Program-made: the position numbers and the translations under genes
Assembly: GCA_964388005.1 (NCBI GenBank)
Contig: CAYLZU010000004.1
Location: forward strand, 1-28,995
DNA from: an uncultured Burkholderiaceae bacterium
Lineage (GTDB): Bacteria; Pseudomonadota; Gammaproteobacteria; Burkholderiales; Burkholderiaceae_F
Reading direction: 5' to 3'
Length of the DNA: 28,995 nucleotides
In this document: piece by piece, positions 4,033-28,921 of the stretch
Layout: each line of letters begins with the position of its first letter
Numbering within the stretch: the stretch's first letter is position 1
The notes under the pieces: model-generated
What the model saw: the letters and a program-made list of their open reading frames with translations, nothing else
What the model was told of the DNA's origin: nothing
Database searches by the model: none

Positions 4033-4515
4033 CTAGGTGAGGTTCTCTTCGCCGGGCAGCGCCTGCGCGCGCGGCGGCATGGTGCTCGGGATGTACACGC
4101 GCCGGCCGGATCTCGGCGGCACCGACTGCAGGTGCACCCACGGGTCGCGGCCGCCGGTCCACATCGGCCGCTCCATCCACAGGCCGCAATTCTTGAGATC
4201 CGGCAGGTTGGCGAGGCACCACGCGGCGAGCGCGCGATCGGGCGTGTCCTGCAGGTCCACCGCCTGGCCGGTGAGGTGCCTGGAGGCGGCCGCGGCATTG
4301 CTCGTGCGCTCGTTCACCGCCGCCGGCCGCCAGCCGCTTGCCACGTGCGTGCCGGTCGCCTGGTCGAAGCCGGGCGTCACGCCGTCGGCCTCGGCAAAGT
4401 TGAGCAGCAGGTTCACCCTGCCCACCAGCTCCTCGGCGGCCGCGCGGATCCCGCCGGTGAGCTCGTGGGCGTACTCCACGTCCCGCCCCATCCAGTACTG
4501 CTCGAGCGTGATCAT
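4033..4515 (-). CDS. Endolysin, peptidase M15 family (Zn D-Ala-D-Ala peptidase fold)
   Basis: Motifs SGWR, SRHLTGQAVD and WVHLQ match M15 Zn ligands; flanked by holin-like and spanin genes. Confidence 0.88.
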   Translation of the reverse strand: MITLEQYWMGRDVEYAHELTGGIRAAAEELVGRVNLLLNFAEADGVTPGFDQATGTHVASGWRPAAVNERTSNAAAASRHLTGQAVDLQDTPDRALAAWCLANLPDLKNCGLWMERPMWTGGRDPWVHLQSVPPRSGRRVYIPSTMPPRAQALPGEENLT

Positions 4516-4594
4516 GTCTTGCAACGATGATTCCCCACCCCCACCAGCCGGCACCGACAGTACGGGGCGGTCGGCGGTGGTGGGGCAGCATCAC

Positions 4595-12700: not shown

Positions 12701-12886
12701 AGCGAAACGCCCCACGCCGTACACGCTAAAGCCGACCCCGAGCGCGCCGAGCGCCGTCTTCGCGACGTTGACCGAGCGCGAGATGTCGCCCATCGCGGAC
12801 GCGACGACGCCCTTGGCATCCTGCATGTCCTTCTGCAGGCGCGCGACGTTCGCGGCGATGTCAACGACAAGTACCCCGGCCCGCAC
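9779..12886 (-). CDS. Tail tape measure protein (1035 aa)
   Basis: Long Ala/Gly-rich helical protein after the chaperone genes; GGAGG RBS before GTG 12886; typical N-terminus SADALSKLSQKTGIATGELSQLQYAA. Confidence 0.93.
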   Translation of the reverse strand: MRAGVLVVDIAANVARLQKDMQDAKGVVASAMGDISRSVNVAKTALGALGVGFSVYGVGRFAQSVIDSADALSKLSQKTGIATGELSQLQYAAGLSGVSTEALSKGVKGLSQRMTEAVDSTSKAGQLMKALGVDINAGATPAIEAIARTFAQLPDGTTKAALAVEIFGKAGMDMIPMLNMGEAGIRALKEEAQRLGLTMSTETAKAAEAFNDNLAAVKKSGEGAAIAILNELSPAMVRITQAMKEAAQDSGVLKAVWIAMGGVAAEALGLNDSETKKLTANLRRAQEEVAKLGAHIDALRKQDLLSGVVTAGNMIEGSFLRANAQLRLTQNLLDAMAGKYDDQVTRSQQRGRVLPGGVDERGRVGTDVALEARLKQLLGSGPDDKKAKSKSLGDLLNESAGVSKDFYQDLQTLHAGYTSGRITLDQYSEAVARLIEKQSFAKELTKAQAEETRLLVEQAQRQVEQQEKQDEILANLNSTMSAHAQELELETSLVGASAAEREKAIEFRKIDLALEKAMVQATPETIDALYERAAAEKARLGVLIDTKVAREKAAEAAKDAAKAWEDEFERTSDVIERSLTDALMRGFEGGKGWAQSFKDALVNMFKTLVLRPIIQPIAQTAAGGVLGAFGVSAQAATGGGLLGGGGTGGGGGLRGGGGLADLMPSFYDLSSLGNTLLGSGGSVNYAINSALGLTGAATWGLAEEAAALGIGGLGVAGQGLASGLSFAGPLIGGAIQALQGNVAGGIGSAIGGIAGSAFGPIGTVAGSFLGGVIGGMFGKKKKKPPHAKIVLQMDEQGRFWADLSDVAGVNQVVENNATFQALNAALNDPLQYDPDVLRSLTGKTLQGERGGTGESLLPKFQEYLAPAAQAAQVNVATWQSKLAATGGGALASGIAGYVGSMSVSEYLSPERRLAGARTMYENALALAGTGDAGASAALPGLAQGLLGAGRDYYASGPQFQSLFERVNSDLARVLDQQASAQEAVLAEMPAALREANQDMVMQLKALREDLKAGLERLNSGLRQMGGSESFGGAPA

Positions 12887-12899
12887 GATTTAAACCCTC

Positions 12900-12929
12900 C
12901 AAAAGAAAAGGGGCGCACGCGCGCCCCTT
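12900..12929 (-). terminator. Intrinsic terminator after the GIY-YIG gene
   Basis: On minus it reads AAGGGGCGC-GCGT-GCGCCCCTT followed by TTCTTTT. Confidence 0.8.
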
Positions 12930-12952
12930 CTATAGATAACTGGTTGCTGTTT

Positions 12953-13816
12953 TTACTGCGTGGTCTGCTTGCTTCCCATTCCGCGCCGCGTCTTCCAGGA
13001 ACCGGACCGCATTCGCGCCGACCACTCCGGTCGCTTGATGCCGCGAAGGGATGCTCCAATAGCTTCGCGATGCGCAGCCGTTAGAGTTCTGCCCTTAAGA
13101 GTTTGCGCAATTCGATCCTTCTTCCATTGTGGAACCTCACGGCCCCTCTGGGACGCGCTAATCTTAGCTACGATTTCCGCTCGCCTTTCGGTCGACAGAG
13201 ATTTCCACCACGCGCGGCGCTTCACACCTACGGACGGACGTTTTTGTCCGAGCTGTGACAAGCCAATGCGTTCGCGCTGCGCGGCCCCCAGTACGCGGCC
13301 GGTCATTGCCTTACTGCGAGCGGAGCGCTGCTCCATAGTGACGTTGGCGGTCCCGTTCGCCCGCCGTGTAGCCCACGTCTTAGCAATTGATTCAGGCGAC
13401 ATCTTTCGTCCCCGCAACGCTGCCGCCACCTTCGCACGATGTTCTGGCGTCAACTTGCGCCCACGAGGAGCGCCCATCCGGGCGCGCACCTCTGGAGCAA
13501 ATCGAACTCCAAACTGACTTCCCGCGCGAGGCGCAATGTTGTAGCCAGCACGGTCGTCAAGCGCAGCCCCGGTCAGGTCGAGCCAGTGTTGCTCGCGAGC
13601 TATTAGATCGGCTGCGTCATCCACGCGCTCGACGACTTCAAAAACAAACGCCCCTGCGCCGTATTTGTTCCATGCGTTCTGCAGTTTCGGATTTCGATGA
13701 GTCCCGCGCGTCAAATCACGCTTGTGACCTCCCCAACGATCCGCGATGTCTACTGCGCTTCCAACGTACACCCTGCCGCTCGCCCTGTGCCGGATGATGT
13801 AGATACCGGATTTCAT
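12953..13816 (-). CDS. Free-standing GIY-YIG homing endonuclease with NUMOD3-like repeats
   Basis: SGIYIIRHRASGRVYVGSAVDIADRW..H...L matches the GIY-YIG motif. The C-terminal repeats (HRAKVAAALRGRK, KIAQTLKGR, HREAIGASLRG) are NUMOD3-like, and the gene is visibly more AT-rich than its flanks. Confidence 0.92.
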   Translation of the reverse strand: MKSGIYIIRHRASGRVYVGSAVDIADRWGGHKRDLTRGTHRNPKLQNAWNKYGAGAFVFEVVERVDDAADLIAREQHWLDLTGAALDDRAGYNIAPRAGSQFGVRFAPEVRARMGAPRGRKLTPEHRAKVAAALRGRKMSPESIAKTWATRRANGTANVTMEQRSARSKAMTGRVLGAAQRERIGLSQLGQKRPSVGVKRRAWWKSLSTERRAEIVAKISASQRGREVPQWKKDRIAQTLKGRTLTAAHREAIGASLRGIKRPEWSARMRSGSWKTRRGMGSKQTTQ

Positions 13817-13824
13817 AGCACAGG

Positions 13825-13852
13825 ATTCTACTGCGGCGGCACGCATCGTCTA
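13825..13852 (-). promoter_or_regulatory. Putative sigma70-like promoter for the endonuclease gene
   Basis: On minus: TAGACG (13852-13847), a 16-nt spacer and TAGAAT (13830-13825), then 8 nt to ATG 13816 with no Shine-Dalgarno. Confidence 0.45.
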
Positions 13853-14197
13853 GTGCTTCTTCGTCCTCTTGGCGAGCGCGGCAAGGGCCGCGGATTCGAG
13901 AATGCGGAGCTTCTGAAAAAGCGCGGGCGTGCACTCCACGCCGGCGAGCTCGAGCCCGGCGCGCACGCGCGTGTAGTCAAGGCCCGTCGGGCCGTTCATG
14001 CCGAGCGACCATTGCGTCTGCACGGCGAGGAACGCCTGCAGGGCGGGCCAGTTCTCGGGCCAGACCGGGAAGCCTTCTTCCCTGGGGCCCAGCTCGGCGT
14101 CGATCTGCGCTTCGGGTACGCCCAGCACGCGCAGATCTTCGCGTGCCTGGTCGAGTTCGGCGCCGCCGCGCGCCCAGTACGCGGCGGCCTCGCTCAG
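13850..14197 (-). CDS. Tail assembly chaperone, frameshifted C-terminal part (gpGT-like, DUF1799-like)
   Basis: The -1 frame continues from the slippery site as LSEAAAYWARGG...VWPENWPALQAFLAVQTQW...GLDYTRV. The ORF track calls it from GTG 14128. Confidence 0.85.
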   Translation of the reverse strand: MSEAAAYWARGGAELDQAREDLRVLGVPEAQIDAELGPREEGFPVWPENWPALQAFLAVQTQWSLGMNGPTGLDYTRVRAGLELAGVECTPALFQKLRILESAALAALAKRTKKH

Positions 14198-14535: not shown

Positions 14536-15480
14536 CTACGTGTAGACGATCGACAGTTCGTCGTTCAGCGAGTTGCTGGGCGCGAACTCCAGGGCCAAAG
14601 ACAGCGTGCGCACCCCTTTCAGCGCGCCCACCTGCGGGTCGGTGAGCCGCACCTGGTTGGCGGTGAGCGTGTGGATCGCGCCCGCCACGGTGCCGTGGAC
14701 CACCGACAGCGCCCCGGTCGCACCCGAAGTGACGATGCTGTGGAAGTCCTTCTGCGCGATTGTGGGGTGCTCCATGGTCACGCGGCCCGAGGGCTTGCGG
14801 TTGACGATCAGCACCTTGTTCGTGCCGCCGCCGGGGAGCGACAGGTACTGCAGCTCGTTGCCGAGGTCGATCTCCAGCTCCTGCAGGCCGAACGAGTAGC
14901 CGTGCAGGGAGGCCGTGGGGGTGTTGGTGCGGTTCACCGGCTTCGGCGCCTGGTGCGCGGTGAGGGTCAGGGTGGGGAGCGCCGTGTCGGTGGGCAGGGC
15001 GTAGAGCGCCATGCCGTGCAGCCGGTAGAACGGGATCTCCTCGTTGCGGTACACGAGCGACACGCTCGCCCGCAGACCCAGGAGCTTTTGCTGCATGCCG
15101 TCGATGTTGGCGTACAGCGACGCGCTCTCGTGCGCGGCGGAGATCGGCGCGTAGGTGACGCTCACCCCGGGCGATATGGTCTCCGAGAGGCCGCAGGCGC
15201 GCAGCAGCGCCCCGTAGGGCGGCGCGGTGCCGGCGGCCGCCGCGCCGGTGATTTCGACCTCGAGGTCGATCTCGGCCCACTGGTAGGCAGTCTTCGAGGC
15301 AAAGCGCCCCAGCGCGGGGATCGCGATGTCGTCGCGCGACGCGTAGTTGACGGCCTGCGGGCGCCAGCCCGCGATGCGGGCGAGCACCGCGTTCGCCGCG
15401 CCGGTGGGAGTGGAATCGGTGCCGTAGGTGCCCTCGATCTTGGCGAGAATGGCGCGTTTTTTGTCGATCGCTTCGGTCAT
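14536..15480 (-). CDS. Major tail tube protein
   Basis: 314 aa; KKRAILAKIEGTYGTDSTPT N-terminus typical of siphovirus tube proteins; lies before the chaperone and tape measure genes. Confidence 0.85.
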   Translation of the reverse strand: MTEAIDKKRAILAKIEGTYGTDSTPTGAANAVLARIAGWRPQAVNYASRDDIAIPALGRFASKTAYQWAEIDLEVEITGAAAAGTAPPYGALLRACGLSETISPGVSVTYAPISAAHESASLYANIDGMQQKLLGLRASVSLVYRNEEIPFYRLHGMALYALPTDTALPTLTLTAHQAPKPVNRTNTPTASLHGYSFGLQELEIDLGNELQYLSLPGGGTNKVLIVNRKPSGRVTMEHPTIAQKDFHSIVTSGATGALSVVHGTVAGAIHTLTANQVRLTDPQVGALKGVRTLSLALEFAPSNSLNDELSIVYT

Positions 15481-16964: not shown

Positions 16965-17768
16965 TCAGCCGAACCGGATCAGCCGGTACGGCGAAAGAAT
17001 CCGCTCCGCGCCCAGCGGCAGCGCATAGGTCTCGAAGTCCGAGTTCTGCTCGCGGTGCTCGTAGAAGTGGCCCACGAGCAGCAGCAGCGCGGCGACGATG
17101 TCGTCGGGCACCTGGCCAAGGAAGCTCTGGCCGGTGCCGGCGCCGGTGATGTCCACGGCCGCCCCGCCAGCCGTGAGCGATACCTGCAGGCTGTCGGCGG
17201 CGGGCGAGCGCACGTAGTACGGCGTGGCCTCCGAGAGCCCCGCCGGCACCGCGCCGCCGGAATTCCACACCCGCACCGGGTCGCTCGCGGCGAGGTCGTG
17301 CCCGTAGGCGGTGAGCGTGTCGGTGCCCGCGTCCACCGCGCTCACCGGCACCACCATGCCGGCGGTGTACTTGACGATCACCGCGTTGGACACCTCCAGC
17401 GGGGAGGGCCAGACGGTGCCGTAGGCGGGCTCGATGCGCCCGCGCTCGGCGTACTTGTCCACGCGGTAGGCCGAGGCCGACAGCGTCTGCAGGCCCCCGG
17501 CGGTGTCCACGTACTCGATGCTCTGCACCGCGCGCAACGGGCCCACCGGCAGCTCGATCTCGCAAGGGAAGGCAGCCAGCGAGAGCTGGCGCTGCTGGCG
17601 CACGATGGCGATGCGGCAGTGGCTCTCGGCGTGCCGGCGCGCCGCCGCGATCGCGCGGCGGATGAGCGCATCCTGCGAGGTGTCGCCCGAAGGGGCGCGC
17701 AGGTGCGCGCGCGCCTCGTCCAGGTGGACGGGCTCGGCAAGCGGCGGCGAGAGGACGATGTCGGCCAT
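16965..17768 (-). CDS. Head-tail connector (HK97 gp6-like) with an ~80-aa inserted domain
   Basis: PPLAEPVHLDEARAHLR ... YTAG [insert] VPDDIVAALLLLVGHFYEHRE. Confidence 0.88.
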   Translation of the reverse strand: MADIVLSPPLAEPVHLDEARAHLRAPSGDTSQDALIRRAIAAARRHAESHCRIAIVRQQRQLSLAAFPCEIELPVGPLRAVQSIEYVDTAGGLQTLSASAYRVDKYAERGRIEPAYGTVWPSPLEVSNAVIVKYTAGMVVPVSAVDAGTDTLTAYGHDLAASDPVRVWNSGGAVPAGLSEATPYYVRSPAADSLQVSLTAGGAAVDITGAGTGQSFLGQVPDDIVAALLLLVGHFYEHREQNSDFETYALPLGAERILSPYRLIRFG

Positions 17769-18649: not shown

Positions 18650-19939
18650 TTAGGCGCGCGCGTCGAGGACCACGAACGGCGAGAGCGAGTTGCTGCCGTT
18701 CGCCGGCGTGACCGCCGCGGCGGCCGAAGGCTGGCCATCGACGCGGAAGGTGGCCCGGAAGGCCATCGCGCCCGCATCGAAGTACAGGTGCATCGAGGTT
18801 GCCGTCTCGATGCCCGCGCCCGCCTTGGTGATGGTGCGGTACGCCTTCCAGTCGGCAAAGGCGATGTCGCCCTGGTCGCCCACGGTCTTGCACAGCTGCG
18901 TGACCATGATCGGCCGGCCCATCAGCAGGCCGTTGGGCGCGTCCTTCAGGCCCGATCCCGGCGGCGTCCAGATCGGCGTGTCGCCGATCTTGAGCAGCAT
19001 GAGCTGCTGCAGCGCGTCGTCGTTGATCATCCAGATCGCGCGGCTGCGGCCGAGGTTACGACCGTACATCTTGACGATGTTCTCGGCCACGATCGTGTCG
19101 GCCGCCTGGCTGCCCTCCTTGGCCACGCTCACCTGCGCGGCGTGCCCGAAGAAGCCCAGCGGCTGGCCAACGCCCGAGCCCTGGAAGAACGCGAGATTGG
19201 CCTTCCAGCGGATCGACTCCGAGGTCTTGCGGCCGATGTAGCGGTCGAGCGCCGCGGCGTCGGCCGCGAGCTCGTCGGTCACCGGCACCAGCGCCATCAG
19301 CTTGTTCAGCCGCAGCGAGGCCACCGAGCCCTTGGGCTTGGTCTGCGTCGCGACGCCGGCCTCCGTCTCCCAGTAGGCGCGCATGCCGTCGGTGCCCCAG
19401 GGCGTGGTCTCGTCGCGCGGGAAGGTGAGCGAGTTGCCCGTGACCGGGTAGTCGTCGGTCAGCGGCAGCAGCGCGTCCTGCTCGAGCGAGTGCTGGAACA
19501 CTTCGCGCGAAAACTCGGGCGCGATCAGGAAGCCGCCATCGGCCCCCGTGGCCTCGTTGCCGTAGGTGGTGGGCGCCGCCGCCTGCCAGCGGGCGAGCTC
19601 GTCGGACACGTAGCCGCCGGGCAGGCCCGCGCGCATCACGTGCTGCGCGAAGTGCCCGTAGGAGCGGAAGCCGCCGCGCGGGTCGTCGGCGAGATTGTCG
19701 CGCACGCGGGCGCCCGAGCCGGCCGGGATCGCGGGCGCGCTGCGCTCGGCTTCGATCAGCGCTTCCTGGCGCTTCACGTCGGCGTTGATGGTCTCGAGCG
19801 CGGCCATGTGGCCGTCGAACTGCTTGCGCTCGTCGTCGGTCAGGTCGCGATTTTCGGCCGCGGCCTTGTCGGTGATCGCCTTCGCGGCGCCGACGGTTTG
19901 CTGCTTGCGCTCGAGCAGAGCGCGGAGTTGCGGGTTCAT
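18650..19939 (-). CDS. Major capsid protein, HK97 fold, with N-terminal delta domain
   Basis: AAGGAG RBS before ATG 19939; coiled-coil N-terminus; ADGGFLIAPEF, YWETE, KLMALVPVTDEL and AFRATFRVDG motifs. Confidence 0.95.
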   Translation of the reverse strand: MNPQLRALLERKQQTVGAAKAITDKAAAENRDLTDDERKQFDGHMAALETINADVKRQEALIEAERSAPAIPAGSGARVRDNLADDPRGGFRSYGHFAQHVMRAGLPGGYVSDELARWQAAAPTTYGNEATGADGGFLIAPEFSREVFQHSLEQDALLPLTDDYPVTGNSLTFPRDETTPWGTDGMRAYWETEAGVATQTKPKGSVASLRLNKLMALVPVTDELAADAAALDRYIGRKTSESIRWKANLAFFQGSGVGQPLGFFGHAAQVSVAKEGSQAADTIVAENIVKMYGRNLGRSRAIWMINDDALQQLMLLKIGDTPIWTPPGSGLKDAPNGLLMGRPIMVTQLCKTVGDQGDIAFADWKAYRTITKAGAGIETATSMHLYFDAGAMAFRATFRVDGQPSAAAAVTPANGSNSLSPFVVLDARA

Positions 19940-20062
19940 TCGGGTCTCCTTGGTTGATGTGGTCGGCAAAGCAGCTGCCGTCGGGCAGCGACGCCCCGGG
20001 GCTCGACGGAGCCCGGCGCGATCGGAGCGCCGCCGCGGCGCTCCCGGATTCGGAAATTCGGT

Positions 20063-21043
20063 CTAGCCGAGCGCCGCGAGGCGCAGCTGGTCCTCGGCGC
20101 GGGCGCGCGAGTGGGCGGCAGCACCTGCGCCGCCCAGCTTCGCCTGCAGCTCGCCGATGACCTGGTCCATGGTGGCGACGCGGTCGGCGAGCTTCGCCTT
20201 GACCGCATCGGCAGCGAGGAGCATACGCCCCTCGCCGTAGCCCGCGCGCACCGCCGAGGGCTTGTCGCCGCGGCCGCGGGCGACATCCTCCACGAACATG
20301 CCGTAGTACTTGTCCACCTGCTCCTGGATCGCCGCGCGCGCCTCGTCGCCCAGCGGCGCGTACTGGTTGCCCTCGACCTTGTACTTGCCGGCCGAGACGA
20401 GCTCCACCTTGACGCCCTTCTTCTCCAGGAACGCGCTCCAGTCCTCGTGCGCGGTCCACACGCCGATCGAGCCGGCCTGGCCGCCCGGGGTGACGACGAC
20501 CTCGTCGGCCTGCGCCGCGAGCCAGTAGGAGGCCGAGGCCGCGAGCGAGTTCACCACCGCGATCACGGGCTTCTTCCCGCGCGCGGCGTGGATGTCGGCC
20601 GCGAGCTCGGCAATGCCGAACACGCTGCCGCCGGGCGAGTCGTGGTCGAACACGATCGCGCCCACGTTCGGGTCTGCGACGAGCTGGCGGAAGTGCCGCC
20701 CGAGGATCTCGGTCGAGGTGCCCACGCCGGAGGAGGAGTCCTCCACCAGGTGCGCGCGGTGGCCGATGACCCCGGACACGGGGAGCACGGCGATCAGGTT
20801 GCTGCCCGCAGGGCGCACTCTCTCCTCGCGTGCCTGCCGGCGCGCTGCCGCCCGCTCCGGCGTGTCGTCCTCGCCACGGTCATAGGCGCCAGGCGCCACC
20901 GCTGCGCGGATCTCGTCCGCGTTTAAACGCACGCCGTCGGCAGCGCGGTGGAGCACGACCTTCAGCATCGCCAGGGTCTCGGGCAGCAGCGCCCAGGGCG
21001 TGCGGTAGAACTCGGTCATCAGGCGCACTAGACGGCCGTTCAT
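20063..21043 (-). CDS. Prohead protease, S49 (SppA-like) family
   Basis: Motifs DHDSPGGSV, LAASASYWLA, GSIGV, SAGKYKVEG. Confidence 0.92.
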   Translation of the reverse strand: MNGRLVRLMTEFYRTPWALLPETLAMLKVVLHRAADGVRLNADEIRAAVAPGAYDRGEDDTPERAAARRQAREERVRPAGSNLIAVLPVSGVIGHRAHLVEDSSSGVGTSTEILGRHFRQLVADPNVGAIVFDHDSPGGSVFGIAELAADIHAARGKKPVIAVVNSLAASASYWLAAQADEVVVTPGGQAGSIGVWTAHEDWSAFLEKKGVKVELVSAGKYKVEGNQYAPLGDEARAAIQEQVDKYYGMFVEDVARGRGDKPSAVRAGYGEGRMLLAADAVKAKLADRVATMDQVIGELQAKLGGAGAAAHSRARAEDQLRLAALG

Positions 21044-21052
21044 GGCTTCTCC

Positions 21053-22018
21053 TTAAAGATCGAACAGAAGGTCACGCTCGTCCTGCAACTGCCGCGCCGA
21101 GGGGCTCTGCTTCACCCCTGGCTCGCCGAACTCTTCGCCGCTGGCGATCGACGCCACCGCGGCCACCGCGCGCGCTTTCAGCTCGGCCTGGCCGAATGCC
21201 TCCGCGCTCTGAATGCCGAGGGCGCCAACCGCCTGCTGCGCGGGCCGCCTGCGGATGGGCGGCGCATACCACATGCTGCCGCCGAGCACGGCAGGCACGA
21301 CAACCTCGCCGCCCAGCGCGGTGGCGCTGCCGAAACTCTCCGCGCTGGCGATCCCGCCCGCATCGCCGATCGTCTGCGGACCCAGGACGACGGCCGCGCC
21401 GATCGCCTCCGCGCTGGCGATGTTGCCGGCCGCAAGGATCGTGAAGTTCGCCTGCCCGCCGCCGAAGGCCTCGGCCGTGCCGATCGCCCCGGCCGCGCCG
21501 ATGGTGAAGTTCAGCTTGCCTGCGCCGAAGGCCTCGGCCCCGCCGATCGCACCCAGGGCGAGCAGCGTGAAGTTCAGCTTGCCGCTGCCGAACGCCTCGG
21601 CGCTACTCACCGCGCCGGCAGCGAGCGTGAAATTCGCCTGCGCCGTGCCGAACGCTTCGGCGCCGGCGATGTCGCCCGCGCCGCTGATCGTCTGCCCGCC
21701 GCCCGAGGTTGCGACCGTGGCCGCGCCGATCGCCTCCGCGCTGGCGATGTTGCCGGCCGCAAGGATCGTGAAGTTCGCCTGCCCGCCGCCGAAGGCCTCG
21801 GCCGTGCCGATCGCCCCGGCCGCGCCGATGGTGAAGTTCAGCTTGCCTGCGCCGAAGGCCTCGGCCCCGCCGATCGCACCCAGGGCGAGCAGCGTGAAGT
21901 TCGCCTGCGCCGCGCCGAAGGCTTCGGCCCCGGCGATGCCGCCAGCGCCGGAGATCGTTTGCCCGCCAGCACCGCCGGCCGGGACATGCCCGAGAAACAG
22001 GCGCGAGCGCGCCATCAT
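21053..22018 (-). CDS. Gly/Ala-rich repeat protein with ~12 copies of G-I-x-[SGT]-A-E-A-F-G (about 21-aa period)
   Basis: Repeats are visible in the translation; coupled to both neighbours. Confidence 0.8.
   Translation of the reverse strand: MMARSRLFLGHVPAGGAGGQTISGAGGIAGAEAFGAAQANFTLLALGAIGGAEAFGAGKLNFTIGAAGAIGTAEAFGGGQANFTILAAGNIASAEAIGAATVATSGGGQTISGAGDIAGAEAFGTAQANFTLAAGAVSSAEAFGSGKLNFTLLALGAIGGAEAFGAGKLNFTIGAAGAIGTAEAFGGGQANFTILAAGNIASAEAIGAAVVLGPQTIGDAGGIASAESFGSATALGGEVVVPAVLGGSMWYAPPIRRRPAQQAVGALGIQSAEAFGQAELKARAVAAVASIASGEEFGEPGVKQSPSARQLQDERDLLFDL
21392..21902. repeat. 184-bp perfect direct repeat (21392-21575 and 21719-21902)
   Basis: The two copies read identically by eye; the 327-bp offset keeps the frame. 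Confidence 0.9.
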
Positions 22019-22332
22019 CAGGCCGTCGTCAGGATCGTGATCGCGAGATCAGCCCACTCCGGGGGCGAGGTCTGGTCGCTGAAGATGATCGTCACCTTGT
22101 CAGCGTTCATTTCCGTGCCGCTCAGAGCCACGTCCACCACTTTGCTCGACGACGGGTTCACCGCGGGCAGCGTAGCGAGGTTCGCGAGCGCCCCGTTATC
22201 TTTGCTGATCTTCACATCGCCGGCGGCGAGCGTCGGGTTCGATTTGAACAGGCCCGGGCTGGCGTAGTCCTCCAGACACACGTCGAACTCGAAATCCTCG
22301 CCCTTGACCGGCGGGTTCCAGGGCGCGGCCAT
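22018..22332 (-). CDS. Conserved-looking phage hypothetical protein (104 aa, beta-rich)
   Basis: FKSNPTLAAGDVKISKDNGALANLATLP...LSGTEMNAD; coupled to both neighbours. Confidence 0.75.
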   Translation of the reverse strand: MAAPWNPPVKGEDFEFDVCLEDYASPGLFKSNPTLAAGDVKISKDNGALANLATLPAVNPSSSKVVDVALSGTEMNADKVTIIFSDQTSPPEWADLAITILTTA

Positions 22333-23532
22333 TCAGCCTCCGACCAATTGATGTGACGCGCGCGGCACCGCGCGTTCCACGTTGCACAGAATTTCATCCA
22401 GCGCGATGTCGTTGAACCACGCGACCGGGGGAATGCGCGGCCCCGAGTACACGCGTGGGATCGTCGCCAGCCATTTCACCGCCTGCGCCGAGGCCATCGC
22501 CGAGACCTTCGTTTCCGGCCCCCATGTGGCGCCGCCGTCACTGCTGCCCTTGCAGTATATGTTCAGCGCGCTCGGGAAGGTCTCACCGCCTGCCGTGGCC
22601 CCGGCGTAGAACACCACCAGCTCCCCGGTATTGATGTTCAGGCTGATCGCGCACAACCCCTGGTCATCGGTGCTGCTCGACACCACGTCGGTGAGCGCGG
22701 TGATCGCGCCCGAATCCACCGTCCACGCCCGCAGCCGGGCGCTCGCGGCATCCACCGCCGACCACGCGACGAGATAGTGGCGCGTGTTGGCGATGTCCAT
22801 CGCCACCGCGAAGTGCGGGAAGGCGGTCGTCGCCGGGCTGTCGGTCATGCTCGTCGCGATGCTCGTCTCGGACCACGTATTGCCGGAGTCGTCGTGCAGC
22901 TTCCGGCTGACTTCGTTGGCGCTCGCGTCCCAGAAGATCGCCATGATGTCCTGCGTGTCCGCCGCATCGTAGTCCGGCAGCAGGATCATCATGTCGGTGG
23001 TGGCGATGGTCTCGTCCACCGTTCGCGCCGCATCCCAGGCGCCGTTCGGCACGTTGGCATTCGGCAAGCGGAAAAACCCACCCTCCGCGCCCGCGTCGAT
23101 CACCGTCTTGCAGTAGACGTTCCCTCCGACCGCGCGTGTAATGGAAAGATGTCCGCCAGTTGCCGTCGTCCCGCCGGCAAATATAACGGTCTGCGTCGAA
23201 AGTGCGTCCGCAGACTCAGTGTCGATCGTGCGGTACAGCGTGTCGTCGGTCGCGCTCTCCGTGTACGCGATATGGATCAGTCCGGCGCTGATGTTGCTCC
23301 ATCGGTCGTACCAGACCGAAAGGTTTGTCACCGTTCCTGCAAATACAACGGTCGGCGCGCTCCACGTCAACCCGCCGTCGGTCGACTTCTTGAACGCGAC
23401 ATCCGATCCCGTGTCGACGTAGACCAGGTACAGCGTGCCGCCTGGCGTCTGCACGATGTAGTTCGTGCCGGCGCCATTCCACTGCACGGCGGCGAGCGCC
23501 TGGGCCACGAGCACATCGGCGCGGCGCGGCAC
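22333..23532 (-). CDS. BNR/Asp-box (sialidase-like) beta-propeller protein (399 aa)
   Basis: Asp-box-like motifs KSTDGGLTWS, HDDSGNTWS and SSDGGATWG. Confidence 0.75.
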   Translation of the reverse strand: MPRRADVLVAQALAAVQWNGAGTNYIVQTPGGTLYLVYVDTGSDVAFKKSTDGGLTWSAPTVVFAGTVTNLSVWYDRWSNISAGLIHIAYTESATDDTLYRTIDTESADALSTQTVIFAGGTTATGGHLSITRAVGGNVYCKTVIDAGAEGGFFRLPNANVPNGAWDAARTVDETIATTDMMILLPDYDAADTQDIMAIFWDASANEVSRKLHDDSGNTWSETSIATSMTDSPATTAFPHFAVAMDIANTRHYLVAWSAVDAASARLRAWTVDSGAITALTDVVSSSTDDQGLCAISLNINTGELVVFYAGATAGGETFPSALNIYCKGSSDGGATWGPETKVSAMASAQAVKWLATIPRVYSGPRIPPVAWFNDIALDEILCNVERAVPRASHQLVGG

Positions 23533-23535
23533 AAC

Positions 23536-23880
23536 TCAGTGCCTCCGAATCGTCGGCAACCCGAACACTTCCCGCGACTTCACCCCGCCCGGCAACTGCC
23601 GGCGCAAATCCTTGTCGAACGCCGCCTCGTTCTTCGCCGCATCGAGCAGCCGCGGGTCGTTCGAGAGCGTGAACGGCGCGCCGCTGCGCATGAGAAACGC
23701 GGTGTCCTTCAACACCTGCTCGGCTTTCTCGTGCCCCTCGGCCAGGCGCGCGCAGGCCTTCAGCGCCGCCGCGACCTCGTCGGCCTTCTGCCATTCGAGC
23801 TCGAGGAAGGTGTCGTCGTTGATGTTGACGAACACCCGCGCGCCCTCGGCGCGGAGTTGGACCTTGCGGATTGCTTTCAT
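23536..23880 (-). CDS. Hypothetical protein (114 aa)
   Basis: ATGA overlap with the upstream gene; protein-like composition. Confidence 0.7.
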   Translation of the reverse strand: MKAIRKVQLRAEGARVFVNINDDTFLELEWQKADEVAAALKACARLAEGHEKAEQVLKDTAFLMRSGAPFTLSNDPRLLDAAKNEAAFDKDLRRQLPGGVKSREVFGLPTIRRH

Positions 23881-24041
23881 GCCGCCGGCTTACGTTGTGC
23901 GCGCTTGGCATCGAGCAAATACGACACCAGTTTTGCGTGCTCGGATAGCGCATCGCGCATGCGCGTCACGCGGGCGAGATACTCTTCAAGATAGGCAACG
24001 GTCTTCGCCTCCAGTTCTTCGGCTTTCAGCAGTTTTTCCAT
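23877..24041 (-). CDS. Small helical hypothetical protein (54 aa)
   Basis: ATG 24041 lies 8 nt after the upstream stop; amphipathic helix pattern. Confidence 0.6.
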   Translation of the reverse strand: MEKLLKAEELEAKTVAYLEEYLARVTRMRDALSEHAKLVSYLLDAKRAQRKPAA

Positions 24042-24049
24042 GGCCGCCC

Positions 24050-24457
24050 CTAGAGTTTGAATATCTTGTTTGCGCCCGCATCCCACTGGATCGTGATGTC
24101 GCCGCCGTTCGGCGTGCACGGCAGGCCGGTCGCCGTGTCGATGTTGCAGATCAGGCGCGAGGTGCTTTCCACGCCCGTGTCCTTGTAGATGTCGATGGAC
24201 TCGAACTGGTCGCCGGTCACGGCCGAGAGCACCACGTCGGCGGCGTCGGCCACGCCAGCGGTCGTGGTCTTGCTGGCGAAGTTGCCGCTCGTGGCGACCC
24301 GCGAGGCCACCGCGCGGTCGTCCAGGTTGTCGTCCGCCGCGAGATCGATCGTGTCGTCCGCCTCGTCCACACAGACGAGCTTGATGTTGTTGCCGTCCCA
24401 GTCGATGTCGCCGGCAAGGAACCCCTCGCGGCCCAGGTCATAGAGCGCGTTAGCCAT
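24050..24457 (-). CDS. Conserved phage structural-type protein (135 aa)
   Basis: MANALYDLGREGFL..DIDWD...GVADAAD...GLPCTPNGGDITIQWD.GANKIFKL resembles, from memory, proteins annotated as minor tail proteins in other phages. Its start overlaps the portal stop. Confidence 0.8.
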   Translation of the reverse strand: MANALYDLGREGFLAGDIDWDGNNIKLVCVDEADDTIDLAADDNLDDRAVASRVATSGNFASKTTTAGVADAADVVLSAVTGDQFESIDIYKDTGVESTSRLICNIDTATGLPCTPNGGDITIQWDAGANKIFKL

Positions 24458-26288
24458 TTGCCTTGATCTCCTTTTCGGTTTCGCGGACTCGCTTGATGAG
24501 CCCGGTTTTCGGGTCGCGCTCCAGCACTTCCTTCTCCACCACGCGCAGGCGCGGCGCTCGCGCAGGCGCGGGCTCGACATGCACATCCCCGGCCCTCACC
24601 TGCACCGCCCCTTCGGCGATCGTGACCTGCGTCACGGGCGCGGGCCGTGCCGCCACTGCCCGCGCGATGGCGTGCAAGCCGTCGTCACCGCCTGCATCCG
24701 CGCGTGGCCCGGAAGAGCCGCACAGGGCGAGTAGTTCGACGGCGCCGGATGCTTCCAGGCGTTCGAGATACCCGGACGCGCCACGATCGCCGGCAATGCC
24801 GCGCACGCTTTCGATGCGCTGCAGGCAGTAGCGCTCGGCGGTTTCTGCGTCCACCGCCATCACGTCCTCGACGAAATCGGCGTGGGCGAGGTAGAAGCGC
24901 TCGGCTTCCTCCACGAACGCCACCGCGTCGCTCGACTTCTCCACGAGGCGCCGGATCTGCGAGGCTTCCTTGCGCACCACGCGCTCTGCGGCGGCCTGCT
25001 CGAGTGCGCGCGCGCGGGCCCGCGCGGCATCGTTGCCGCCGCCCTTGTCGGAGCCGGTGCCGGCGGGCTTGTTGCCGCCCTTGTCCACCACGTCGTCCAC
25101 GCGGTCGGAGGGGACCATGTTGACGGGCACGTAGTAGCGGTCGCCGTCCTCGATCGGGTTCTCGTTCTCGCGCTCGCGGATGTCGTTCGGCGACATCGCG
25201 CCCACGCTGAACAGCTTGCCGTAAAGCTCGCCGCGCGCCTTGGCGTCGCCGCGCAGCAGGGCGTTCATGTTGAACTCGAAGTAGAGCTGCTCGTCTTCCT
25301 GTTCCTTTTCGGTGAGCAGTTGCGCCGAGAGCTCCTGCTCCCAGTTCGTGCACCAGGGCTGCATGGTGTCGGTCGCGTACTCGATCGACTGGTGCTCGAT
25401 GTTGCTGAAGGTCGCCCGCTCCATGAGGCCGATCTTGTGCGGCGGCATGCGGTTGATGGCCGCAATGTCGTAGCCCTTGAGCTTTCTCTGGTCCACAAGC
25501 TGCAGGTCCGCGTTGGAGACCTTGATTTCCTTGAACTGCATGCCGCGCTCGAGCACCGCCGTCTTGCCCACGTTGGCGCCGCCCTGGGCGGCCTGCCAGC
25601 TCGCGCGGAACGCGGCGCGCTCTTCGTCGCTCTTGAAATGGCCTTCCCACTCCAGCACGCCGCCGGGGCGCGCGTCGTTTTCCATGTTGCGGCGCGAGTA
25701 GTTCTGCGCGGCGAGCGCCTCGCTCACCGAGCCGCCCTGGTAGTCGAGCGGCGAGAAGCCTTCGATGCCGTCCGAGCTCAAGCCGCGCACGTGGAACATT
25801 TCTCCACGCACGAGGATGATCTCGCTGCCCGACTCCGGGCGGTAGCGGTAGCGGAAGGTGACCACGCCGTCCGCGCCCATGCCGCGCTCCACCGTCACGC
25901 GGTCCGGGTGGAGCGGCACCAGCTCCTCCACGCGCCCGCGCCGGTCGTAGTAGATGCGCGAGTAGGCGTTGTAGCGCAGCATCAGGTGCCACTGCATCAT
26001 CTGCCGCCACTGGAAGGCGGTCTGCCAGCGGTTCGGCCGGCGGTGGATCAGCCGGTAGAGGGGGTGATCCGTGGCCGCCGCGCGCGTGCGCCCGTCCTTG
26101 CGGAACAACTGGCACGGCAGCTTGCCGATGTCCTGGCCAAGCACCAGGGCGCAGGCGTACATGGCCGGCACCGCGAGCGCCGCAGCAACGCTCGGGCGTG
26201 CGCCGCCGAGGCTGTAGGGCGCAGGCATGTACCAGAAGTCGTCGGTCGGGCCGCGCCCGCTCGCGGCGATGTCCTGGGCGAGGAACAT
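24450..26288 (-). CDS. Portal protein, HK97 family, with an ~220-aa C-terminal extension
   Basis: Motifs HRRPNRWQTAF, LHPDRV, GFSPL, PPHKIG, FSNIEHQ, SPNDIRERENENP and YYVPVNM. Confidence 0.95.
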   Translation of the reverse strand: MFLAQDIAASGRGPTDDFWYMPAPYSLGGARPSVAAALAVPAMYACALVLGQDIGKLPCQLFRKDGRTRAAATDHPLYRLIHRRPNRWQTAFQWRQMMQWHLMLRYNAYSRIYYDRRGRVEELVPLHPDRVTVERGMGADGVVTFRYRYRPESGSEIILVRGEMFHVRGLSSDGIEGFSPLDYQGGSVSEALAAQNYSRRNMENDARPGGVLEWEGHFKSDEERAAFRASWQAAQGGANVGKTAVLERGMQFKEIKVSNADLQLVDQRKLKGYDIAAINRMPPHKIGLMERATFSNIEHQSIEYATDTMQPWCTNWEQELSAQLLTEKEQEDEQLYFEFNMNALLRGDAKARGELYGKLFSVGAMSPNDIRERENENPIEDGDRYYVPVNMVPSDRVDDVVDKGGNKPAGTGSDKGGGNDAARARARALEQAAAERVVRKEASQIRRLVEKSSDAVAFVEEAERFYLAHADFVEDVMAVDAETAERYCLQRIESVRGIAGDRGASGYLERLEASGAVELLALCGSSGPRADAGGDDGLHAIARAVAARPAPVTQVTIAEGAVQVRAGDVHVEPAPARAPRLRVVEKEVLERDPKTGLIKRVRETEKEIKANG

Positions 26289-26452
26289 CAGCCCTCGCGG
26301 CGTGCGGCCAGGCGTGCGCCAAAGGTCGTGAGGCCGATGAGCAAGAGGCCAAACGCGGCCAGGCCGTAGCCCACCCCGAACTGCAGCCCGATGCCCAGGC
26401 CCGTGCAGCTGAGCCCCGCGCCCACCGAGACGTTGTAGACCACATGGTTCAT
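26288..26452 (-). CDS. Small two-TM membrane protein between terL and portal (54 aa)
   Basis: ATGA overlaps at both ends; hydrophobic hairpin. Confidence 0.7.
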   Translation of the reverse strand: MNHVVYNVSVGAGLSCTGLGIGLQFGVGYGLAAFGLLLIGLTTFGARLAARREG

Positions 26453-28437
26453 ACCGTCAGTACTCCCGGATAGCTGGTGCTCGTTGTCTCTCCGCGGCTG
26501 GCGAGCCCGGAGGCCATGATCGCGGCGACGATGCCGTCGATGCGGCCCGTCGCCTTCTTCTTGTCGGGCTTCCTGCAGCCAGCGGAATCGCTCGCGTACA
26601 CCGCGTTCGCCGCGCACCAGGTGAGGCAGGGGTTCCCCGGGTGCCGCAGCGGCTTGTTTAAACGCGCGTGTTTCACGTTGCCCGTATCATCCTTCGCCGG
26701 CACGCCGACCAGCGCGGTCTCGAAGGCCTCCACCGCCGGCGTCATCGACTGGAAGCCCTGGCCAAACGGCACCAGCGGCAGGTCGATGCCTTCGTCGTCG
26801 AGGATCCGCTTGAAGTCCTCGATCCGCCAGCGGTCGTAGCCGAGCTGCTGCAGGTCGAACGCCTCGGCATCGGCCGCGCACTGCCTGGCGACGGCGAGCT
26901 TGTCGATCGCGCGCCCAGGCAACGCGATGATGTGCCCCGCATCGCGCCAGGCGATGTAGGGCACCTTGTCGCGGTCTTCCTTCGCCGCGAGCTCGTCGCC
27001 CGGGATCCACAGCCGCACGAGCAGCCGCCAGTGCGGATCGTCCGCCACCGGCTCGAACATGTACGCGGCCGCCGTGAGGTCGGTCGTGGAGGAAAGGTCC
27101 AGCCCTCCCCAGCAGCGCCGGCCACGCAGGCGCCCGAGGTCGAACTCGGTGTCCTCCGCGCCTTCCCACACGTGCCGCGGGATCGCCGGGTTGACCGACT
27201 CCACCCACTCGCAGAAGTTGAGCCGGCGCACCAGGCTCGCCTTCGAGGGCATGCCGCGCGCGGCGGCCACCTGCTCGCGCAGGTACTTCAGGCCCGGAAT
27301 GTCGAACTCTTCCAGGCTGGGGTTCGCCTTCGGCCAGCAGGCCTCCGACTTGAACGGATCCTCGCCCTTGTCCAGGCCGCACACGAAACCGAAGAAGCTG
27401 TCGTCCTGCAGCGCGCCGGAGGCGACCTTCACCGCGTAATCGTGGTACGCCCAGCACACCGAGTTCTTGTCCACGCCGCTGTTGGTGATCATCACCATCA
27501 TCGGCTGCCGGCGGTTCTTCTGGCCGGCCTTCAGCATCTCGACGACGTTGTTGTCGGCGTGCTCGTGGATCTCGTCGAGCAGCGACACGTGCGGCCGCGG
27601 ACCCGACTGCCCGTCGTCGGAGCTGATCGGCCGGAAGAAACTCCGCCCGGCCAGGTACGCAAGGTTCCAGGTGCGCTCGCCCACGCCCGACTTCTTGATC
27701 ACGTGCGTGAGCTCGGGCGAGAGGTCCACCATCGCGACCGCATCGCGAAAGAGGACCATCGCCTGGTCCTTCTTCGTGGCCGCGGCGTAGATCTCCGCGC
27801 GCCACTCGTTGTCCGAGGTAAGGCAGTACAGTCCGATCGCGGCGGCCTCGGGCGACTTGCCCGAGCCCTTGCCGGTCTCGATGTAGCCGGTGGTGAAGCG
27901 CCGCACCGTTGTCTCCGCACCACCCAGCCATGGCGCCTTGATCGTGCGCTTCCAGCCGAACAGGCTGCCGCCCACGAAACACTGCCAGGCGGTGGACTCG
28001 AAAGGCTTGCCTTCCCACTCGCCGCCGTTCAGCTTCAGGACATCGCGCTTGAAGTTCAGGTAGCGCGCCGCGGCCGCGACATCCCACACCAGGCCGCGCT
28101 CCGCACCGCGCTCCAGGTCCGCCAGGTGCCGGCGGCATGCGTCGCGCACCTGCGGGCCGGCGACCACCGCTCCACGCGCGACCGCCCTGGCGTATTCCGT
28201 CGCCGGATCCTTCGCGGTGCGGATCCGCTCGAAGGTCCGCCGCCGCCGTTCGATGCGCTTCTGGGCCCGCAGCTGGCCGGCCTTGGTCCGGCGCGCCGCG
28301 CTGAGCTCGCCGGCCCTGGTGACGCTCGACGCGCGGCGATCGCCCGACTTAGTGCGGCGCCGCGCCGCCGGTGAAATACGGCGAGCCTTTGCTCGGCTGC
28401 TTCGGCTGCTGTCCGTGCTCTGCGCGCTCGCCGTCAT
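26449..28437 (-). CDS. terL: Terminase large subunit (start uncertain)
   Basis: Walker A GKGSGKS, Walker B LLDEIHEH, nuclease motifs GGLDLSSTTDLTA and RIDGIVAAIMA. Confidence 0.95.
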   Translation of the reverse strand: MTASAQSTDSSRSSRAKARRISPAARRRTKSGDRRASSVTRAGELSAARRTKAGQLRAQKRIERRRRTFERIRTAKDPATEYARAVARGAVVAGPQVRDACRRHLADLERGAERGLVWDVAAAARYLNFKRDVLKLNGGEWEGKPFESTAWQCFVGGSLFGWKRTIKAPWLGGAETTVRRFTTGYIETGKGSGKSPEAAAIGLYCLTSDNEWRAEIYAAATKKDQAMVLFRDAVAMVDLSPELTHVIKKSGVGERTWNLAYLAGRSFFRPISSDDGQSGPRPHVSLLDEIHEHADNNVVEMLKAGQKNRRQPMMVMITNSGVDKNSVCWAYHDYAVKVASGALQDDSFFGFVCGLDKGEDPFKSEACWPKANPSLEEFDIPGLKYLREQVAAARGMPSKASLVRRLNFCEWVESVNPAIPRHVWEGAEDTEFDLGRLRGRRCWGGLDLSSTTDLTAAAYMFEPVADDPHWRLLVRLWIPGDELAAKEDRDKVPYIAWRDAGHIIALPGRAIDKLAVARQCAADAEAFDLQQLGYDRWRIEDFKRILDDEGIDLPLVPFGQGFQSMTPAVEAFETALVGVPAKDDTGNVKHARLNKPLRHPGNPCLTWCAANAVYASDSAGCRKPDKKKATGRIDGIVAAIMASGLASRGETTSTSYPGVLTV

Positions 28438-28921
28438 CGTTCGGGAAAAGGGTCAGTTGCGGATCCACCTGGACCCGTGTGCGCGCCGCCGGCGTCATGC
28501 CGAACTCGCGCTCGAGCGCGAGGACCTGCTTGAAGAGCATCGACTCGGCGAAGAAGAGCTGGTTCACCACCTGGGCGGGCGCGCCCCTCGCCTTCTCGGA
28601 CTTCTCGACCGCGAGCTCGCCGTCCTTCGGCGCGCGGTCGACCATGATGCCCAGGCGCTCCAGGTCCGCGATCGCGGCGCGATGCTTCGCGACCTTGTAG
28701 CACCACAGGGCGAAGGCCTCCACGTCGATCACCGTGAGCACCTTCGCGTTGCGCATCTTCTGCGCGTACTCGTTCCACACAACCTTCGCGCCATCAGGCA
28801 GCCAGGCCGGCGCCGTCAGGTCGTCCAGGTACTCTGGATCGGGCTCCTGGCGCGCGATCTTCCTCTTGCCAGGATTGCCCATCGCCTTCTTGATCTCGGT
28901 CGGAATCCTCGGTCGGCCCAT
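28349..28921 (-). CDS. terS: Terminase small subunit (P27-like)
   Basis: MGRPRIPTEIKKAMGNPGKR, APAWL and EFGMTPAAR motifs; directly upstream of terL. Confidence 0.93.
   Translation of the reverse strand: MGRPRIPTEIKKAMGNPGKRKIARQEPDPEYLDDLTAPAWLPDGAKVVWNEYAQKMRNAKVLTVIDVEAFALWCYKVAKHRAAIADLERLGIMVDRAPKDGELAVEKSEKARGAPAQVVNQLFFAESMLFKQVLALEREFGMTPAARTRVQVDPQLTLFPNDDGERAEHGQQPKQPSKGSPYFTGGAAPH

Follow-up and report, generated by a model that had tools for sequence, protein, structure and literature searches.

Two apparently mobile gene modules between the portal and protease genes of an uncultured Burkholderiaceae prophage: a candidate virion accessory fibre

The portal-protease interval and its six genes

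The window analysed here, the whole 28,995-nucleotide (nt) stretch of contig CAYLZU010000004.1 (assembly GCA_964388005.1) from an uncultured Burkholderiaceae bacterium, is a temperate siphovirus-type element, a prophage, with its structural genes on the minus strand. Our subject is the cassette of six open reading frames (ORFs) that separates its portal and prohead protease genes. From the portal side these are A135 (24050-24457, 135 amino acids, aa), B54 (23877-24041, 54 aa), C114 (23536-23880, 114 aa), D399 (22333-23532, 399 aa), E104 (22018-22332, 104 aa) and F321 (21053-22018, 321 aa), all on the minus strand. The upstream boundary is the portal gene (24450-26288, minus strand), with a PF04860 domain at aa 41-375 (E 3e-95), and the downstream boundary is the protease gene (20063-21043, minus strand), which matches Peptidase_S49 (E 2.6e-37) and the head maturation protease family phrog_53 (E 2e-86). 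Together with the PF05065 major capsid protein gene (18650-19969, minus strand), they form a head module of the HK97 type in one operon. A sequence-only reading of this DNA had listed the six ORFs with the sizes and positions that we find, and had proposed that they encode one co-expressed appendage module.

The cassette is tightly packed. The A135 start codon overlaps the portal stop codon within an 8-nt overlap (ATGGCTAA), A135 and B54 are 8 nt apart, B54 and C114 overlap by 4 nt, C114 and D399 are 3 nt apart, D399 and E104 abut, E104 and F321 overlap by 1 nt, and F321 ends 9 nt before the protease gene. A pattern scan of 20000-26400 found no sigma-70-like promoter site, and the five terminator-like hairpins observed there, compared with 3.5 expected by chance, do not amount to a significant signal. 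With no promoter-like site, no excess of terminators and no gap longer than 9 nt, the cassette is not a classic moron, as the sequence-only reading had also concluded. The G+C content is 0.64-0.66 across about 22000-24500, compared with 0.70-0.73 in the head genes on the protease/capsid side (18650-21043), and on the other side it climbs to just 0.67-0.70, over the terminase and portal genes. The G+C content is also low (0.61-0.66) at 11000-14000, a second trough that covers the region between tube and tape-measure genes and the promoter-proximal portion of the latter.

A135 falls in phrog_644 (E 1e-34). In a phmmer search, its residues 30-127 matched residues 2-100 of PDB 9d93 chain Ra (E 3.6e-10), the 'Tail wing arm, gp31' of mycobacteriophage Bxb1, and since the homology spans most of the domain, A135 was assigned to the Bxb1 gp31 family. 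Homologues occur within the structural regions of 171 deposited phage records, whose carriers include F116-like Pseudomonas podophages, Pseudoalteromonas phage Y7 and several mycobacteriophage clusters; in these clusters the A135 homologues come directly after minor tail genes.

The two small ORFs that follow A135 are of different standing. C114 found no match in Pfam, PHROG, PDB (profile search included) or deposited phages. It ends with one copy of a G-[IV]-x-S-x-E-x-F-G motif (aa 99-107), and the alignment of its family shows an invariant C-terminal ...S.E.FG.P. B54, a small ORF predicted to be helical, had no match in Pfam or PHROG; the one homologue found belongs to locus L004, which is a second assembly of the same sequence that overlaps this one. 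Its third-codon-position G+C content is 0.62, compared with 0.85-0.96 in the neighbouring genes. It has a weak (9-bit) similarity of the coiled-coil type to the 70-90-aa ORFs that elsewhere sit after C, whereas B54 precedes C114. B54 is therefore doubtful and may be a remnant or not a real gene.

D399 passes the Pfam BNR_2 cut-off (32.9 bits compared with 31.4). Its AlphaFold2 (AF2) model, built with 37 homologues, has a predicted local distance difference test score (pLDDT) of 84.9, a predicted template modelling score of 0.88 and 28 strands, indicating seven blades, so that the BNR propeller named by the sequence-only reading is upheld. Three Asp-box motifs are present: STDGGLTW (aa 50-57), DDSGNTW (aa 214-220) and SSDGGATW (aa 330-337). 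The best solved matches in Foldseek were seven-bladed PLL lectins and GH145, PL25 and sialidase propellers, with template modelling (TM) scores of 0.45-0.59; sialidases scored 0.45-0.47 and seven-bladed lectins 0.56-0.59. Against the propeller domains of large phage proteins, TM reached 0.64. Foldseek returned generic propellers only and no specific structural homologue. A search of 1.84 billion representative proteins with the D profile found 2,996 relatives at E <= 1e-3, and the family comprises at least 710 metagenomic clusters, all of them unnamed. Prophage carriers are few (3 loci among 185,579 species genomes). About 70 alignment columns are invariant across 37 D sequences, with D, E, R, Y or W in many of these. 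We propose that D399 could be a hub or a carbohydrate-binding head. Two phages carry a tandem duplication of the D gene (L013, 8001-10397; L116, 3013-5408), and giant proteins of 1,700-2,400 aa (P0267, P0281 and P0282) contain up to four D-type propellers.

E104 was modelled by AF2 as an immunoglobulin-like (Ig-like) beta-sandwich (pLDDT 91.7). It found no match in PDB (profile search included) or deposited phages, and structure comparison gave just generic Ig-fold matches (best E 0.18). The family comprises at least 391 clusters, those listed being all 104-106 aa long, and its N-terminus, MAAPWNPP, is invariant. No signal connected E104 with the ORFs of about 100 aa that follow F-like genes at loci with A135 relatives.

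F321 contains an array with a period of 63 nt and 7.9 copies (21426-21937; Tandem Repeats Finder), corresponding to 21-aa repeats of the G-I-A-S-A-E-A-F-G type, and thus to the 21-aa repeat seen in the sequence-only reading. It matches phrog_13352, 'minor tail protein' (E 9.5e-16). This match and the A135 homologues of some mycobacteriophages agree with the earlier remark that the cassette includes a protein like those annotated elsewhere as minor tail proteins. The N-terminus of F321, MMARSRLFLGH, carries a conserved h-F-h-G motif, which in relatives is MxxFRhFFGN-like. F321 ends (21053-21200) in ...QDERDLLFDL, and a similar end, with a basic, then an acidic, then a hydrophobic stretch, is seen in some F-type proteins and propeller-repeat fusions. 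Such tails (...EEEELLLLVA, ...RRAALLLLLAA) occur in the proteins after E in L014, L015 and L090 and in P0336 and P0338; the EEELLLL-type tail is confined to some F lineages.

C, D, E and F had no match among 50,697 deposited phage genomes, and they belong to families that have neither a name nor a cultured representative. No defence-system (PADLOC) or NCBIfam model matched any of the six ORFs.

Two modules with separate distributions

We compared 51 viral-contig loci carrying A135 relatives (A loci; identity up to 87%) with loci carrying D relatives (D loci), of which 27 were on viral contigs and 77 in metagenomes, plus contigs reached via exact proteins; the pooled, non-redundant D loci numbered 88. 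E lies directly after D in 67 of the 77 pooled loci with enough sequence, and the spacing is 25 nt or less in most loci. By sequence, E104 appears to be an obligate partner of D. None of the 27 viral D loci contained B, C or an F detectable by BLAST, and in four of these loci a profile search detected A-like proteins immediately upstream of D. Neither D nor E was present at any of the 51 A loci. D loci without C and A loci without D or E rule out a six-gene unit that travels together. The cassette appears instead to consist of an A-C and a D-E-F module that are separately mobile and combined only here. The sequence-only reading had asked if A, E and F keep company: E and F do co-occur with D, whereas A has its own distribution. 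Its view of the six genes as one unit is thus not sustained, all the more as B54 is doubtful.

A C profile search showed that C adjoins A in 32 of the 51 A loci. There the coiled-coil ORF of 70-90 aa usually comes next, and after it large, variable proteins, of which several contain concanavalin A (ConA)-type lectin (Laminin_G_3) or beta-helix domains.

The protein after E is linked between loci by its N-terminus. In 56 of 59 loci, this ORF opens with [FYI][FLYI]G at residues 5-8, compared with a background of 22 in 406 ORFs, and two of the three remaining loci carry the variants FVG and FSG. Beyond this motif, the post-E proteins of different lineages are unrelated in sequence, which explains why BLAST failed to link them. 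A tandem period of 20-23 aa was the strongest in 13 of 19 post-E proteins, F321 included, and among the top two in 17. In L091, the same N-terminal motif is fused to a Laminin_G_3 domain. The shared motif and period indicate that F is the third member of a triad with D and E. The window contains this triad in full, with a propeller, a 104-106-aa Ig-like protein and an h-F-h-G ORF with 20-23-aa repeats, all abutting. The N-terminus of F may behave as a portable docking element. In some of the more distant D relatives, a propeller is followed by 20-21-aa repeats in one chain, and these fusions are a separate line of evidence for a physical cooperation of D and F. Other D relatives have several propellers, tail-fibre-type N-termini or glycine-rich domains fused.

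On its upstream side (within 150 nt), D is preceded by four small-protein families in different lineages: an A-like (phrog_644-type) protein in about seven lineages besides the window, a PF23140 'GP4 fibre I gp80' protein (PDB 8jou) in eight, a phrog_3758 protein in six and a 195-aa family in four to five. Comparison by hhalign joined only A to phrog_644-like proteins (93%) and phrog_240 to Gp80 (97.6%). It did not support a single superfamily of A135, Gp80, phrog_240 and phrog_3758, and by this comparison the four upstream families are separate. Four different families at this position are as expected of an exchangeable virion adaptor, and such an adaptor before a constant D-E unit would be the simplest reading of the arrangement.

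A second motif connects the two modules. The pattern [GSA][IVN]x[SGT]xEx[FIV]G occurs nine times in F321 and once at the C-terminus of C114, and is absent from the 22 other window proteins. It is invariant in the C family and recurs at the end of the coiled-coil ORFs found after C at other loci. F-like proteins with repeats of this motif lie no more than a few kilobases (kb) from A-C at roughly half of the A loci. F321 thus combines an N-terminus of the D-E type, the putative docking element, with repeats of the A-C type, which would tie both sub-modules into one device.

D and E have diverged far less than the surrounding head genes. Identity is 45-75% for D and 65-88% for E across contigs of 39-74% G+C, while the portals of the same contigs are 22-37% identical or belong to different families. 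Such conservation across diverse contigs points to horizontal spread and to constraint by partners or catalysis, and it argues against D or E as a host-specific receptor-binding element. A receptor-binding role would fit the variable part of F better.

Genomic placement of the modules

In seven lineages, the start of D-E-F lies at most 1.3 kb downstream of a portal gene, and these portals are of several kinds: PF04860 in the window, L029, L037 and L091; the SPP1-type PF05133 in L010; the P22-type PF16510 in L015, where D abuts the portal stop codon; and a portal fused to a head-morphogenesis domain in L014. The position after the portal gene, which the sequence-only reading treated as out of the ordinary, therefore recurs across unrelated portal families. 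Of about 33 lineages whose upstream sequence was long enough, about 15 had a recognisable portal within 8 kb. Against a 6% null, the seven lineages within 1.3 kb correspond to a binomial P of about 1e-3, for a small sample in which the independence of lineages is argued solely from their differing portal families. Because seed profiles and Pfam recognised no further portals in the extra metagenome loci, this estimate rests on the same 33 or so lineages.

In L037, the order is TerL, portal, a Gp80-like protein, two small ORFs, D, E, F, an S78 protease and capsid. In L036 and two Joint Genome Institute (JGI) contigs, portal and S78 protease are separated by a larger block, in which D-E-F is accompanied by proteins of 464-513 aa and of approximately 840 aa. 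The P0091 contig has D-E-F between a likely portal and a MuF/ADP-ribosyltransferase protein. The latter, on this JGI contig (sample 3300075153, 11675-13375), is a 566-aa protein with Mu F and ADP-ribosyl exotoxin domains, directly after D-E-F and before the capsid genes. A Nitrospira prophage (L038) has a Gp80-like protein, D, E, F and a gp77-like adaptor in succession, between its head-completion and tail genes.

Neither module is confined to head genes. D-E-F follows a J-like protein in L006, an S74-chaperone fibre in L007 and a collagen-repeat protein in L016, and in L103 its distance from a T7-type portal is 7 kb. A-C stands behind tape-measure and distal-tail genes in two loci (L065 and L070), separates TerL from portal in L055 and capsid from adaptor genes in L041, abuts the portal in L040, and follows the adaptor in L056. 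Since both modules can follow tail genes, the placement as a head, vertex or neck fibre that the sequence-only reading had suggested does not follow from gene position.

Several D-E-F phages encode sugar-modification enzymes in or just after the structural operon (L037, 12397-15827; L035, 13114-15868; L090, 11901-17321; L091, 17351-18663), namely glycosyltransferases, methyltransferases, sugar-nucleotide epimerases and a pyruvyl transferase or cytidylyltransferase. This location suggests that the virions are glycosylated.

In the window itself, the genes for the small (TerS, 28349-28921) and large (TerL, 26449-28437) terminase subunits lie upstream of the portal gene, on the minus strand. Between TerL and portal is a small ORF (26288-26617, minus strand) whose C-terminal half is glycine-rich and hydrophobic; in the L004 assembly, the corresponding gene call is 64 aa long, runs up to the contig end and includes no more than the last part of this ORF. 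The portal protein is 612 aa long and continues beyond its Pfam domain, which ends at aa 375, in an Ala/Glu/Arg-rich C-terminal extension of about 235 aa, with a weak match to a tape-measure PHROG and a suggested coiled coil. Past the capsid gene come, in order, a gp6-like head-tail adaptor gene (16965-17768; PF05135/phrog_442), head-completion and neck genes, and the tail tube gene (14536-15480); the tape-measure gene is at 9779-12886, all on the minus strand. The head-tail adaptor has an insert of about 70 aa (aa 142-214) that matches the tail-fibre protein domains phrog_9370, phrog_4711 and phrog_7765, and this insert is a candidate docking site for an appendage. Beyond the tape-measure gene, the tail module ends, on the same strand, with three tail-tip proteins of 564, 255 and 537 aa, and no recognised fibre gene follows them. 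An ORF with a weak Peptidase_M15-like match (4033-4554, minus strand) lies beyond the tail genes. A tyrosine integrase gene (phrog_1) is at 1109-2455 on the plus strand and there is no transfer RNA (tRNA) gene anywhere in the window, so that this looks like a prophage end without a tRNA attachment site in view.

A probable accessory fibre and its alternatives

We consider that the cassette probably encodes a virion accessory fibre built from two joined, horizontally mobile sub-modules. This reading is favoured because A has a homologue, Bxb1 gp31, among virion components of solved structure; because A-C and D-E-F each co-occur while their distal lectin, beta-helix or repeat parts vary; because D-like propellers are fused to repeats, tail-fibre-type N-termini and glycine-rich domains; and because the overlapping or abutting genes have no promoter of their own and the phage's tail module has no recognised fibre gene. 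The earlier proposal of a co-expressed appendage module survives in its co-oriented genes, its place in the head operon and its appendage-type parts (a Bxb1 gp31 homologue, a lectin- or glycosidase-like propeller, an Ig-like domain and a periodic repeat fibre), and fails in its assumption of a single six-gene system.

In the device that we envisage, the late head-operon transcript would be translated into the cassette proteins. A135, perhaps with C114, would be a Bxb1 gp31-type arm or anchor and fix the assembly to the particle, and D-E, the seven-bladed propeller with its Ig-like protein, would form a conserved socket. F would dock its N-terminal h-F-h-G strand into this socket and project a periodic, probably oligomeric, beta-rich shaft as the fast-evolving distal protein; the distal part would be a 20-23-aa repeat shaft in most relatives and a ConA-type lectin domain in one. 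C may cap the F repeats or co-fold with them via the common motif. The function would most likely be reversible binding of surface polysaccharide, to which D might add lectin or glycosidase activity.

Several points weigh against this picture. The presence of C, D, E and F in virions is something that we infer, and no cultured phage carries them; the contacts that we draw between cassette proteins are deduced in the same way. D and E are far more conserved than usual receptor-binding proteins, which suits a hub or an enzyme and not a host-specific adhesin. The interchangeability of the anchors is argued from position, and A135 has no detectable profile similarity to Gp80. The window also contains no homologue of Bxb1 gp30, the carrier of gp31 in that phage.

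Of the systems that resemble the cassette, the Bxb1 tail wing is the only one with a homologue in it. The Bxb1 wing is a non-essential peripheral tail assembly of three proteins: the 'wing base' gp30 binds the tail spike and carries both gp31 and the 'brush' gp33, and phages that lack these genes are viable (PMC12646305). The window shares with this wing (PDB 9d93) the gp31 homologue and the plan of a multi-protein peripheral assembly from adjacent small genes. It differs in having neither a gp30-like D-Ala-D-Ala carboxypeptidase base nor a polyglycine gp33-like brush, and searches of Pfam, PHROG and PDB found no peptidase or polyglycine protein among B, C, D, E and F; the one peptidase-like ORF is the weak M15 match at 4033-4554, about 19.5 kb away. 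Its partners C, D, E and F are unrelated to those of gp31, its genes lie in the head operon whereas the Bxb1 wing genes come after tail genes, and its host is non-actinobacterial (about 70% G+C; HK97-type head, S49 protease).

Ralstonia podophage GP4 (fibre I gp80, PF23140; adaptor gp77, PF23148; PDB 8jou) offers a combination of a small anchor and a small Ig-like protein. In GP4, a 15-mer Ig-like ring is reported to hold the fibres around the head-to-tail adaptor (PMC11445570). Here the likeness extends to relatives of the cassette only: a Gp80-family protein lies directly upstream of D-E-F in at least eight relatives and a gp77-like protein follows F in one, with PF23140/PF23148 features found in L037, L038, L035 and the P0091 contig. 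In the window, A135 had no Pfam match at E <= 1 and an hhalign probability of 0.1% with the Gp80 group, and E104 had one of 0.2% with a gp77-like protein, so that a gp77-like adaptor was rejected. The descriptions of GP4 consulted mention no D-type propeller. Xanthomonas podophage PhiXacm4-11 comes close in another respect, as its gp38, with partial similarity to GP4 fibre I, adjoins gp39, a lectin/sialidase-like beta-propeller, and both were detected in virions and left unplaced in the map (bioRxiv 10.64898/2026.02.16.706137). Its distal tail-fibre proteins gp37-gp39 thus also pair a small anchor with a propeller; they have no sequence relation to the cassette, gp39 is described as a small three-bladed propeller, no E- or F-type partners are reported, and the genes lie in the tail-fibre cluster.

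Lactococcal 936 phages have carbohydrate-binding neck passage structures. In cyanomyophage A-1(L), the neck fibres consist of a gp82 anchor, a gp81 chain and a distal gp80 carbohydrate-binding module (PMC10966104). Like the proposed device, these neck structures are accessory fibres built from several components, namely an anchor, a shaft of repeats and a sugar-binding distal end, and primary receptor recognition does not depend on them. They show no homology to the cassette, and their genes are not beside the portal gene. D-, E-, C- and F-type proteins are absent from all four compared systems. A limited literature search found no paper on the C, D, E and F families or on the portal-adjacent arrangement, and, in line with the sequence-only reading, the arrangement is no described tail-tip module.

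A more specific form of the accessory-fibre reading is that the device is a set of neck or portal-vertex (collar) fibres, encoded beside the portal gene because they are mounted there. We hold this to be less likely than not; its likelihood is a share of that of the accessory fibre as a whole, and the two likelihoods are not additive. The seven portal-proximal lineages with three portal Pfam families and one fused portal speak for it, as do the enrichment estimated above and the recurrence of portal, small genes, D-E-F, protease and capsid with an S78 protease (L037, L036 and the two JGI contigs). The Gp80-type anchors, moreover, belong to a fibre that in GP4, by the same account, hangs from the neck ring (PMC11445570), the window's head-tail adaptor has its tail-fibre-like insert, and A-1(L) provides a precedent for three-part neck fibres. 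However, D-E-F also stands after tail-fibre-type genes in L006, L007 and L016 and 7 kb from the portal in L103, the solved homologue of A is at the tail tip, and E is unrelated to GP4 gp77. The post-portal site also collects cargo such as the MuF toxin of the P0091 contig, and may be just a permissive insertion site. The extension of this idea, in which D-E is a universal, horizontally exchanged fibre socket held by a lineage-specific anchor at the portal vertex or neck and accepting fast-diversifying distal fibres via a 6-8-residue N-terminal strand, in siphoviruses, podoviruses with P22- or T7-type portals and Mu-like phages alike, is doubtful at present.

A different question is what D itself does. 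It could be a virion-borne glycosidase or lyase acting on a widespread polysaccharide, with E and F as accessory binding parts, a reading that concerns the role of D alone and is compatible with an accessory fibre. Catalytic constraint would account for the high conservation of D, the fold is like those of GH145, PL25, sialidase and anhydrosialidase propellers with three Asp-boxes, the invariant columns are rich in D, E, R, Y and W, and the Bxb1 wing base has an enzymatic domain tied to halo formation (PMC12646305). We nevertheless regard the enzyme as rather unlikely: the best structural matches are non-catalytic PLL lectins, similarity to any solved protein is low, the model has seven blades compared with six in GH33, no sialidase catalytic motif was identified, and many invariant residues are blade-structural Asp-box positions. 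Still less probable, to the point of being very unlikely, is that the cassette is non-structural cargo using the late operon, whether for moron-like host conversion, defence or counter-defence, or as injected head-internal proteins. The MuF-type toxin at the same site of a related contig, the unusual conservation and horizontal mobility of D and E, and a G+C dip suggestive of recent acquisition would suit such cargo. It would be expected neither from the absence of an own promoter or terminator and of PADLOC and NCBIfam matches, nor from folds that are extracellular or adhesin-like, a solved virion homologue of A, neighbours elsewhere that are fibre proteins, and propeller-repeat fusions that are fibre-like.

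What is unexpected in these results is the very high conservation of D-E, the portable, putative docking motif of F and the recurrent placement beside portal genes. Accessory fibres affect first adsorption and host reach and are targets for phage engineering. The analysis defines two modules that are abundant in metagenomes, as the cluster counts of D and E attest, and in which C, D, E and F were without annotation. D-E seems to accept unrelated distal proteins through a short N-terminal motif that they share, and if the N-terminal motif is a docking peptide, it would provide a ready-made means of swapping distal fibres. The recurrence of D-E-F directly after portal genes of unrelated families stands out as a regularity, so far unexplained, in how phage genomes are organised. 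If the universal-socket idea were true, D-E and its fibres would represent a type of neck appendage not recognised before, carried by uncultured phages of several bacterial phyla.

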